DNA of 64,000 nucleotides, taken from Dictyostelium discoideum (Eukaryota). Every line of letters begins with the position of its first letter. Within the stretch, counting starts at the first letter, position 1. Positions 18,454 to 54,250 of this stretch are shown here, piece after piece. The notes beneath the pieces were generated by a model. It did not search any database. It was not told the origin of the DNA and saw nothing but the letters and a program-made list of their open reading frames with translations. The DNA lies in assembly GCA_000004695.1 (NCBI GenBank), contig CM000151.3, forward strand, positions 6,784,001-6,848,000. The letters are read 5' to 3'. Made by a program: the position numbers and the translations under genes.

Positions 18454-18972
18454 GGATGGAAAAGAAAGAAAAGAAAAAAAAAAAAAAAAGAATCTTTTAT
18501 ATTTTTTTTATTATTCCCTACAAGGTAAGATAGTAGATTCACACCAGAAACTAAAGGAAAATAATGAAAAAAAAATAAAAAAATAAATAAAATAAAAAAA
18601 AAAACAAAATAAAAAAAAAATAAACAAATCTTTTTGAGTTATTTGATATTTTTCATGATGTACATACTGCAAAAATAGGTTTTGATTATTTTTCTTTTTT
18701 TTTCTTTGTGCTTCAAACTGTTTTTTTTTTTTTTGATATGAAAAATGGGTATTGTTTTTAATAAAATAAAAAAACTCTGTTTGAGTAAAAAAGTGTTTTT
18801 TGTTTTAAATAAATAAATAAATAAATTAAATAAATAAATAATTGATTGATTTGATTTGATTTTTATTTTATTATTTTGGTTTTGGTTTGGTTTTGATTTT
18901 GATTTCTCTCTTTTTTTTTATAGTTTTTTTTTTTTTTTTTTTTTTTGTTGAGTTGAAGAAGAGAGAAAAGAA

Positions 18973-19012
<40 letters not shown>

Positions 19013-19549: not shown

Positions 19550-19810
19550 TTTTAGTGTGGTGTGTCGATTGTAAAATAAAAATAAAAATAAAAATAAACA
19601 AAACAAAACAAAATAAAATATATTTGGTTTTTTTTTTTTTTTTTTTTTTTTATTATTAATTTTTTAAAAAATAAAAATAATTCTTAAAAAACAACAAAAT
19701 GATGAATTTATATGAATATCTTACATTTCTTTGCAGGATTATTAATATTAAAAATAAAAAAAAAAAAAAAAAAAAATTATAAAAATAACGAATATTGTTG
19801 TTATAAAAAT

Positions 19811-23797: not shown

Positions 23798-24245
23798 ATG
23801 ACCATTTTTAAAAAAGGTATTGAAAAAATTCAAAAATCTAATAAAAATATCATTATTAGATCTTATTCAAGTAGGTACAGATTTAATAATTATTAAAAAA
23901 TCCATATTTATATAAAAAAAAAAAAATTAATTTTAAAAAAAAAAAAAAAAAAATATATATATATGTATAGAAAGTAGGTATGAAGAAATTGTAAAATTAA
24001 GAGAAGGTTATAGTAGTGCACAAGTTGAAGAAAATGATTTATCAAAAGAAATTATGGATAGAATAAAAGATAGAAGAAAACAACAACCAAATTATCGTGA
24101 TGATATTAATGATGATTCTACTGTATATTCATCAAGAAAAGATGAACAATTTAAAGAACAAAGTCATTTAATAATAAATGGAAGAAAAGTTTCTTGTGAC
24201 ATACCAAAAGATCAAGTAGAAGTTGTATCTCTTAAAGATTATTAA
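23798..24245 (+). CDS. hypothetical small protein, 2 exons: join(23798..23816,23971..24245), about 97 aa
   Basis: Micro-exon ATGACCATTTTTAAAAAAG|GTATTG (phase 1). Acceptor TGTATAG at 23970 joins in frame to ESRYEEIVKLREGYSSAQVEENDLSKEIMDRIKDRRKQQPNYRDD...VSLKDY (the ORF track shows only 24054-24245). The boundaries are inferred. Confidence 0.3.
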
Positions 24246-25159
24246 TAATAAAAAAAAAAATTATAAAATAAAATAAAATAAAAAAAACTTTGTACATAAA
24301 AGAAAAGCAATTTGCGATAGCGAGAGATACCACCCAATTTTTTATTTTTTTTCATTTTTTTTTCATTTTTTTTTTATTTTTTTAATTTTTTGGAGTTCGT
24401 AAATGGGCAATTATTTTTAATGTGACAAAAAGTTGTCGAGTTTTTTCAATTTTTTACTTTTTTTTTTTTTTTTTCGTATTTTTTTTATTTTTTTTTTTTG
24501 GGCTAACCTAAAATTTTTTTTTTTTTTCTTTTTTTTTTTTCTTCCTTTCCACTATCAACAATATTGTTATACTTGAAACAGGTACAGATACACCCTTTGT
24601 TATTAATTTAAAATGTTTAAATGTCAAACTTTATTGTATTCAATTTTAATTGATACAGCATTGCACACACATGCATTTCAAATAATAATCATCCAATAGG
24701 TAAAGTAAACATTATGAATCAATTTGAAATTATCTTTAGCGTACAATTAAAATAATTTCAAACATAATGTTTACTTTAGAGACCTACTTTTAAATACAAA
24801 AAGGATATCTCATCTCTGCACTCAAGTATAAACCTCTTGCAGCTCTAGAGGATTATATATTTTTTTTTAAAAAAAATAGAGATAAAGTCCCAGAATATTT
24901 AAAATAAAAATAAAATATTATTTTAACTCCAAAAAAAAAAAACCAAAACCAAAAAAAATTAGCATCATTCAAAAAGATATTTTGGAATTTTTTTTATTTT
25001 TGGATATAAAATATATTTATATTTTTTTGGAAATTAGATAATTAATTGACTGATGTGTTTAGAGACAAATTAAAGCATTTAAGTATAAAATTTTAAAAAA
25101 TAAAATATTAACCCCCCTTTATTTTTTTTTATTTTTTTTTCTCTTTTAACAGATACAAA

Positions 25160-25552
25160 ATGGTCAGAATCAGTGTTTTAAACGATTGCTTAAACTCCAT
25201 TGTCAATGCCGAAAGACAAGGTAAAAGACAAGTCTTAGTCAGACCATCATCAAAAGTCATCGTTAAATTCTTAGAAGTTATGATGAAAAAGAGATACATT
25301 GGTGAATTCGAAATCGTTGATGACCATCGTTCCGGTAAAATTGTCATTGATTTAATCGGTCGTATCAACAAATGTGGTGTCATCTCCCCAAGATTTGACG
25401 TTACTTTAGACGAAATCGAAAAATGGGCCTCTTACTTACTCCCATCCCGTCAATTCGGTCATATCGTCCTCACCACCTCCCTCGGTATCATGGACCACAA
25501 CGAAGCCAAAACCAGACACACTGGTGGTAAATTATTAGGTTTCTTCTATTAA
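25160..25552 (+). CDS. rps15a: 40S ribosomal protein S15a (uS8)
   Basis: The 130-aa [41 protein letters not shown]...[11 protein letters not shown] is collinear with eukaryotic S15a/yeast Rps22. It is GC-richer with unbiased codons, typical of a highly expressed gene. A strong acceptor (TTTTTTTCTCTTTTAACAG) lies 8 nt upstream of the ATG, suggesting a 5'UTR intron. Confidence 0.92.
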
Positions 25553-53992: not shown

Positions 53993-54033
<41 letters not shown>

Positions 54034-54100
54034 CAATAGTTAGTTATTTATTTTTTTTTTTTTTTTTTTTTTTATTAATCAAATTTATTTTTTATTCTTT

Positions 54101-54117
<17 letters not shown>

Positions 54118-54131
<14 letters not shown>

Positions 54132-54206
54132 TTATTAATTTATTAATTTGAATCCATATTAATTTCAGCAGCCAAAAAAAACTAAATAAAAAAATAAATA
54201 AAAAAA

Positions 54207-54237
<31 letters not shown>

Positions 54238-54250
54238 AAAAATAAACAAA

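Follow-up and report, generated by a model that had tools for sequence, protein, structure and literature searches.

The rps15a locus and its putative leader intron

A stretch of 64,000 nucleotides (nt) of the Dictyostelium discoideum genome (GenBank assembly GCA_000004695.1, contig CM000151.3, positions 6,784,001 to 6,848,000 of the forward strand; the window, numbered here from its first nt) carries on its + strand an open reading frame (ORF), 25160-25552, which encodes a 130-amino-acid (aa) Ribosomal_S8 (uS8/S15a) protein according to Pfam, identical to the 40S ribosomal protein S15a of D. discoideum AX4 (EAL69182.1). Comparison with related loci makes it very likely that 24582-25152, directly upstream of this gene, rps15a, is an intron of its 5′ untranslated region (5′UTR). 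A first-pass annotation, made from the letters alone, had singled out a hairpin in this intron, here called P4, as a candidate small RNA. On the best reading of the data P4 is instead one arm of a structured domain of ~285 nt in the rps15a pre-mRNA (24567-24851), closed by a long-range helix, P1, that lies over the 5′ splice site.

The rps15a loci of relatives were located with the same protein or with close orthologues, and the intron was judged by sequence comparison. Five more assemblies (L001-L005) encode the identical protein. Two loci (L006 and L007) have one protein sequence in common under the source names D. citrinum and D. firmibasis, the assignment of locus to species being inferred. 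More distant loci were those of D. purpureum (L008), Polysphondylium violaceum (L009), Cavenderia fasciculata (L010) and a P. violaceum-like environmental organism, the environmental relative, represented by six contigs (L011-L016) from four JGI samples and two Logan runs. A second protein search yielded no additional dictyostelid genome loci, and two matches in ENA were G+C-rich non-dictyostelids.

The first-pass annotation had proposed a pyrimidine-rich start at about 24540, a donor CAG|GTACAG at 24583 (the bar marks the junction) and an intron of about 570 nt, all of which were supported by the comparison. The start, CTTCCTTTCC, begins at 24541, which is also where conservation begins after a T-run of variable length; the donor GT is at 24582-24583, the acceptor AG at 25151-25152 and the ATG at 25160. 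The predicted intron is thus 571 nt long in D. discoideum, with counterparts of 595 nt in D. purpureum and 499 nt in P. violaceum, and its splice signals are conserved across dictyostelids. The GT, the AG and the start of exon 2 were unchanged in 11 loci while adjacent bases varied, and every dictyostelid locus examined keeps the GT, the AG, a branch-point-like motif and the exon-2 start ATA(C/A)AAAATGG (AAAAATGG in Cavenderia). A pyrimidine-rich stretch ending in ..ACAG|GT is present in the D. discoideum complex, D. purpureum, P. violaceum, the environmental relative and C. fasciculata, the exon 1 equivalents of D. purpureum and P. violaceum ending more fully in ..TTG(A/G)AACAG|GT. In all loci the acceptor AG lies at most 7 bases 5′ of the ATG and follows a polypyrimidine tract and TACTAAC (TATTAAC in D. 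discoideum). The distance from TACTAAC to the AG is 20-35 nt in D. purpureum, P. violaceum and the environmental relative. The context of the acceptor is variable (ACAG, ATAG, TTAG) and its AG constant.

All six environmental contigs keep the leader intron with similar ends. They look genomic rather than like intron-retaining transcripts, since one extends into intergenic DNA and one ends in an Illumina adapter. The spliced junction predicted for the P. violaceum-like organism had no exact match in JGI contigs. Exon 1 contains no ATG and the intron contains six, so that the main ORF would not be translated from RNA in which the intron was retained.

Further observations were made within the intron. 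Two patches, 24880-24915 (AGAGATAAAGTCCCAGAATATTTAAAAT) and 25030-25092 (TTGACTGATGTGTTTAGAGACAAATTAAAGCATTTAAGTATAA), are also conserved, and D. purpureum, P. violaceum and the environmental relative each have a UGAUG-containing stretch 50-100 nt 5′ of the branch point.

A conserved and covarying domain predicted over the 5′ splice site

In a comparison of eight D. discoideum-complex genomes, the conservation of 24541-24860 equals that of the coding sequence: every 50 nt hold 0-2 variable columns, where the flanking non-coding DNA has 5-15 and many indels besides. The region is also less AT-rich than its surroundings, as the first-pass annotation had noticed: the G+C content of 24541-24851 is 27.7% against 15.6% in the remainder of the intron. 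Divergence between the window and L006/L007 is 2-5% in exon 1 and the first intron bases, ~6-10% in the distal block 24801-24851, ~10-11% in the interior 24600-24696 and 20-33% in the remainder of the intron.

In the minimum-free-energy (MFE) fold of 24540-24870 the two strands of P1 pair in four segments, TTATACTTGA/TCAAGTATAA, CAGG/TCTG, AGATA/TATCT and CCTTT/AAAGG, of which the second, P1b, crosses the exon/intron junction (Table 1). P1 thereby takes up the final 15 nt of exon 1, the 5′ splice site itself (CAG of the exon, G+1 of the intron) and positions +5 to +17 of the intron and pairs them with a segment lying 219-250 nt into the intron; ~230 nt are enclosed. When D. discoideum, D. purpureum, P. 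violaceum and the environmental relative were folded independently (MFE), each gave the same closing helix including CAG|G, the domain interiors of the last three being unrelated in sequence. A short hairpin, P2, directly follows P1 and had a pair probability of 0.79-1.0 in 6/6 full-length folds. RNAalifold, applied to six D. discoideum-complex sequences, recovered P1, P2, P4 and a further interior hairpin, P3.

Covariation was found in P1a and P2. Alignment A3, composed of six distinct sequences from four lineages with pairs counted in P1a, P1b and P2, had 98% of its cells paired, five pairs in P1a and P2 changed on both sides, and no internal pair broken. None of 500 shuffles matched its covariation score, and slid controls were 28-48% paired. 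The compensatory versions of the closing helix are TTATATTTGA/TCAAATATAA in D. purpureum and TTGTACTTGG/CCAAGTACA in P. violaceum; P2 changes to CCCCT/AGGGG in the environmental relative and, in L007, to CCTCA/TGAGG. The G·U pairs, comprising an invariant one in P1b and one that arises from an A to G change in L001, are compatible with the + strand only.

Stretches of primary sequence are retained as well. The block AAAAGG(A/C)TATCT..TCTGCAC(T/C)CAA(G/A)TA(T/C)A is kept in D. purpureum, P. violaceum and the environmental relative. The motif ACAG|GT(N1-3)GATAYACCCTT, just 3′ of the splice site, persists as far as C. fasciculata. There GATATACCCTTC pairs with GAAGGAATATC ~50 nt downstream, and in P1d a U-A pair of D. 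discoideum is replaced by C-G. A wider homologue search for the P1/P2 block returned one contig, which was already among the loci compared.

The hairpin P4

The geometry and the sequence strings given for P4 in the first-pass annotation, 16 + 10 perfect base pairs (bp) with a 6-nt bulge and a 20-nt loop, were correct, and its coordinates were 9 nt too low. The arms occupy 24701-24732 (TAAAGTAAACATTATG AATCAA TTTGAAATTA) and 24753-24778 (TAATTTCAAA CATAATGTTTACTTTA), and outer TAGG/CCTA pairs with a GAGA bulge extend the hairpin to 24697-24786. RNAfold, which had been proposed there as a check, gave -26.9 kcal/mol for 24690-24790 on the + strand, a non-random value (z = -6.4, with 0/200 shuffles as good), and -31.1 kcal/mol on the - strand. 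Among 338 perfect inverted repeats in the window (at least 12 bp, spacer of at most 100), P4 was the only one not made of A/T low-complexity sequence. Its arm sequence has no second copy within the 64 kb, and a repeat or transposon was ruled out on the uniqueness of the arms in the window. Nearly all of the window's perfect inverted repeats consist of very long A-runs or T-runs and (TTTA)n repeats (53993-54240, 18924-19010 and 19631-19776), and low-complexity sequence dominates raw hairpin counts in the D. discoideum genome.

Six D. discoideum-complex genomes preserve the P4 hairpin, as judged by RNAalifold and the alignment, with mismatches also present. D. purpureum and P. violaceum lack it and have other interior hairpins inside the conserved enclosing helix. 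Two pairs were changed on both sides, U-A to C-G in the upper stem of L007 and U-A to A-U in the lower stem of L006/L007. The GAGA bulge and the AUCA of the 5′ bulge are each retained in 5/6 of the sequences, and the apex carries insertions of 18-34 nt. Relative to L006/L007, the 3′ arm has diverged by 6-11%, the 5′ arm by 25% and the apex by 25-45% plus insertions; the arms taken together thus show 6-25% against 2-10% for the flanking P1 strands. This order of divergence makes P4 the least constrained part of the island and not its core, and fits a structural arm in which pairing matters more than sequence.

Table 1. Features of the rps15a leader region (positions in the window)
Feature	Positions	Strand	Description
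Putative non-coding exon 1	24541-24581	+	Pyrimidine-rich start, without ATG; last 15 nt form the 5′ strand of P1a
Putative 5′UTR intron	24582-25152	+	571 nt; GTACAG...TATTAAC (25106-25112)...polypyrimidine tract...AG
Exon 2	25153-25552	+	7-nt leader ATACAAA and rps15a (uS8) coding sequence 25160-25552
P1, 5′ strand	24567-24598	+	P1a TTATACTTGA (24567-76), P1b CAGG (24579-82), P1c AGATA (24586-90), P1d CCTTT (24594-98)
P1, 3′ strand	24800-24831	+	AAAGG (24800-04), TATCT (24806-10), TCTG (24815-18), TCAAGTATAA (24822-31)
P2 hairpin	24833-24851	+	CCTCT-TGCAGCTCT-AGAGG, directly 3′ of P1
P3 imperfect interior hairpin	24599-24689	+	In the consensus obtained by RNAalifold from six D. discoideum-complex sequences; both sides changed in two pairs
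P4 hairpin	24697-24786	+	Lower stem 16 bp, 5′ bulge AATCAA, upper stem 10 bp, 3′ bulge GAGA

Neighbouring sequences and related loci

The upstream neighbour of rps15a (23975-24245 in the window; 1566-2005 in L008) is a + strand gene for a protein of ~115-120 aa, whose position and orientation relative to rps15a are the same in D. discoideum and D. purpureum, with an intergenic gap of ~900-1000 nt in both. In this gap a block at 24393-24432 (GGAGTTCGTAAATGGGCAATTATTTTTAATGTGA), ~110-150 nt 5′ of the putative exon 1, is nearly invariant in D. discoideum-complex genomes amid surroundings rich in indels, and it is a candidate promoter element of rps15a.

In C. fasciculata the end of rps15a exon 1 and the start of the coding-region intron (AAACACACTGGTGAGTGTCCACTAAGACC...) are duplicated ~360 nt downstream (L010, 3352-3430 and 3715-3795). 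The deposited 213-aa model (P0034) appears to run into the duplicate and is probably mis-annotated. The two G+C-rich, non-dictyostelid uS8 genes from ENA metagenomes (L018, 1660-1905; L021, 600-842) show the arrangement ..CTCG|GTGAGG ... CCCGCAG|AGCCTCTATTTGAGCC ATG, which suggests a 5′UTR intron directly 5′ of the start codon in an unrelated lineage too.

Proposed control of splicing and alternative explanations

The domain is, with a probability that we put at moderately good, a cis-acting structure of the pre-mRNA that governs splicing of the leader intron. P1 must act on the pre-mRNA, because its exon part exists only before splicing. Donors within P1 are weak, GTACAG in D. discoideum and GTTGAT in P. 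violaceum, the consensus of 5′ splice sites being of the GTAAGT type. When formed or stabilised, P1 would bar the U1 small nuclear ribonucleoprotein (snRNP) from the 5′ splice site, the leader intron would stay in, and the unspliced RNA with its six upstream ATGs would be unproductive or degraded. The most likely effector of such a switch would be free Rps15a/uS8 itself, acting in negative feedback, and P4 might serve as a structural arm holding the two P1 strands together or, alternatively, as a handle for a binding protein or an RNase III-type nuclease. Autoregulation by Rps15a through the domain, which is suggested by analogy with yeast RPS22B and with bacterial S8 on the spc operon, is put forward tentatively and at clearly lower confidence than splicing control as such. 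Somewhat more doubtful still is an ancient form of uS8 autoregulation, in which free Rps15a would bind the conserved bulged helix GAUA-YAC-CCUU / AAGG-N-UAUC beside the 5′ splice site and lock P1 over the junction; excess Rps15a would then keep its own transcript from being spliced, and a nuclease of the RNase III/Dicer type would destroy the unspliced RNA using P4 as its handle.

Several observations weigh against control of splicing by the domain. In whole-leader folds the probability of P1 is uneven, being 0.93 in the environmental relative, 0.87 in L007, 0.3 in D. discoideum, 0.08 in P. violaceum and 0 in D. purpureum, and forcing P1 costs 0-1 kcal/mol in four species and 9.6 in D. purpureum. 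The covariation comes from only six distinct rows and ~five independent events. C. fasciculata lacks P1a and P1b and keeps only the part proximal to the splice site. P4 is limited to the D. discoideum complex, so that no element of the model is weaker than the role given to P4 itself. Alignment to the yeast element or the bacterial S8 site discussed below revealed nothing beyond a shared GAUAC and an A/C-rich bulge, and both the 5′UTR intron and its regulation are deduced from sequence and predicted folds. Folding during transcription would be expected to favour P1, because both of its strands are made before the competing downstream sequence. In exon 1, 24557-24568 is a perfect 12-nt palindrome, AACAATATTGTT, which overlaps the first two bases of P1a and forms a local hairpin competing with P1 in the full-length MFE fold of D. 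discoideum.

Constitutive splicing architecture, in which the domain would compact a long intron or present the splice sites and have no feedback role, is the best of the alternatives and is considered improbable. The intron is long in D. discoideum, D. purpureum and P. violaceum, and P1 would shorten the path from the 5′ splice site to the branch point by ~230 nt. Granas 2026 (PMC13232506) suspect a 'zipper stem' in the yeast RPS22B intron and refer to such stems as frequent among the introns of other ribosomal-protein genes. The 3′ strand of P1, however, ends at 24831, ~275 nt 5′ of the branch-point-like TATTAAC; P1 joins no region near the branch point and covers the junction itself, and an intron zipper stem was rejected for this reason. 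A helix over a splice junction is expected to hinder, not to help, the binding of U1.

That P4 is a substrate of Dicer or another RNase III enzyme, cut by DrnB or DrnA to give a microRNA (miRNA)-like small RNA or to destroy the unspliced pre-mRNA or the lariat, is in our judgement decidedly unlikely. As a 26-bp nearly perfect duplex P4 has the size of a pre-miRNA, as the first-pass annotation remarked, and its -25.0 kcal/mol over 88 nt (-0.28 per nt) and 26/26 paired stem positions compare with the limits used for Dictyostelium miRNA precursors, a folding energy under -0.2 kcal/mol/nt and a duplex paired to 60% or more. Two intronic miRNA loci are known in D. discoideum (Liao 2018, PMC6161686), and the yeast RPS22B structure contains a site at which Rnt1p, an RNase III, degrades unspliced RNA. 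Yet 12-mers of both arms are absent from the supplementary miRNA tables of Liao 2018 and Edelbroek 2024, so that P4 is listed neither for D. discoideum nor for D. firmibasis; mir-1177 is the only miRNA reported as common to these two species. The folding energy of P4 is weaker per nt than that of 12/12 loci in Table S1 of Liao 2018 (-0.51 to -0.73; PMC6161686). The two intronic loci, mir-1180 and mir-7102 (Liao 2018, PMC6161686), resemble P4 in being hairpins in an intron of a protein-coding gene, and differ in being 149-153 nt long, in their energies of -0.53 to -0.62 kcal/mol/nt and in their DrnB-dependent reads. Finally, the arms of P4 evolve faster than their flanks, the 5′ arm most of all, which counts against a mature miRNA, expected to show the opposite. 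P4 may give rise to Dicer products at a low level.

An independent gene for a structured non-coding RNA of ~300 nt, with its own promoter upstream of rps15a, is given an equally small chance. A terminal helix and a 3′ hairpin followed by TTATATATTTTTTTTT in D. discoideum resemble a small stable RNA, and a T-rich promoter-like stretch precedes the region. The T-run after P2, however, is not conserved, D. purpureum having GGGTTAAAAAATAATC in its place; the conserved AG and branch point 8 nt 5′ of the ATG require a donor, and the only conserved GT lies inside P1; and the region has no Rfam match. A coding reading was likewise rejected: the 28-aa ORF at 24613-24699, considered as a coding exon or micro-ORF, has mostly non-synonymous changes in L006 and a 2-nt gap that shifts the frame in L007, as the alignment was read.

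Ribosomal-protein introns often host small nucleolar RNAs (snoRNAs), and the island is both conserved and G+C-richer than its surroundings; even so, an intron-hosted snoRNA or another stable intron-derived RNA is very improbable. For box C/D, no RUGAUGA occurs on either intron strand, and the single CTGA of the + strand (25050) overlaps the only TGATGT (25051), so that a C box/D box pair is lacking and this class was rejected. The box H/ACA class was rejected as well, because the ACA 3′ of P4 (24796-24798) is replaced by ATAAAA in L006 and L007, and P4, a nearly perfect duplex whose bulges are one-sided, contains no pseudouridylation pocket. The Rfam scan that the first-pass annotation had proposed found nothing at gathering thresholds over the whole window and only noise at E up to 10 over 24200-25300. 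An RNA derived from the excised intron, moreover, could not form the covarying helix P1a, because half of it is exon and is lost on excision. A G+C-richer island with a hairpin in an AT-rich intron thus need not be a small-RNA gene. No better placed is the view of P4 as a selectively neutral palindrome tolerated within the domain, which would suit its lineage-specific occurrence, quickly evolving arms and large apical insertions but not the pairing kept in six genomes despite up to 25% divergence of the arms, the two both-sides changes or the GAGA and AUCA retained in 5/6 genomes.

Comparison with known systems

The control of splicing favoured here has counterparts in yeast. A structure made of 5′ exon and 5′ splice-site sequences in yeast RPL30 (and RPS14B) is bound by the gene's own protein, which blocks splicing, and this is the same mechanism as proposed for P1. 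The RPL30 element is a short local kink-turn, whereas P1 is a long-range helix with ~230 nt enclosed, and a tandem G·A motif was not seen.

Bacterial S8, as summarised in Granas 2026 (PMC13232506), binds a doubly bulged stem in the mRNA of the spc operon and thereby represses it. The bacterial sites, helix 21 of 16S rRNA and the spc operon mRNA, resemble the domain in that the protein concerned is of the same family and in being helices with small bulges, and differ in that repression of the operon is translational where control of splicing is proposed here. The pentamer GAUAC, checked in the sequence as positions 639-643 of E. coli 16S, is also found at 24587-24591 and in the yeast element. 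The arrangement of the E. coli S8 core (A595-A596-G597-U598 opposite A640-U641-A642-C643-U644, with bulged bases) was rejected for the domain: the strand opposite GAUAC is AAAGGAUAUC, in which the AAGU core (595-598) is missing, and GAUA is predicted to lie among ordinary Watson-Crick pairs.

The closest likeness is to yeast RPS22B, which is repressed ~12-fold by Rps22 through a 557-nt 5′UTR intron; for this a conserved, doubly bulged stem is required, which begins 122 nt downstream of the 5′ splice site and also holds an Rnt1p (RNase III) site (Roy 2020; Granas 2026, PMC13232506). Features of the RPS22B type were found at the Dictyostelium locus, in that a uS8 gene has a putative 5′UTR intron with conserved secondary structure. 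The proteins are orthologous, and both introns are placed wholly in the 5′UTR with similar dimensions, 557 nt in yeast and 571 nt as predicted in D. discoideum, after a first exon of 38 nt and ~41 nt, respectively. The conserved bulged stem of yeast is matched in position by P4, 115 nt after the predicted 5′ splice site. When compared by eye, the yeast core CUUUGAU-[ACCA]-UUUUU / AAGAA-UCAAAG resembles GAUA-[CAC]-CCUUU / AAAGG-[A]-UAUC of D. discoideum, the form of which across Dictyostelia is GAUA-[YAC]-CCUU / AAGG-[N]-UAUC. Both the RPS22B core and the predicted P1c/d consist of a helix, an A/C-rich bulge on the GAUAC strand and then a U/A helix, and yeast and Dictyostelium seem to have a UCAA(A)G/CUU(U)GA helix in common, again as compared by eye. 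The covarying helix of Dictyostelium differs in taking in the splice junction and exon 1 and in enclosing lineage-specific arms, while the yeast element is internal to the intron; the yeast element is known from tests of function and that of Dictyostelium from sequence and predicted structure.

The literature searched contained no report of ribosomal-protein splicing feedback in Dictyostelium, and searches with sequence strings of the domain and with Dictyostelium and rps15a gave no mention of it and nothing relevant. A structure supported by covariation around the 5′ splice site of a social-amoeba uS8 gene is a directly testable case in a tractable organism, and bears on how widespread among eukaryotes the uS8 feedback known from E. 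coli and yeast may be. If the feedback proposed here is true, regulation by uS8 of its own mRNA would span bacteria (S8, spc operon), fungi (Rps22, RPS22B) and Amoebozoa.

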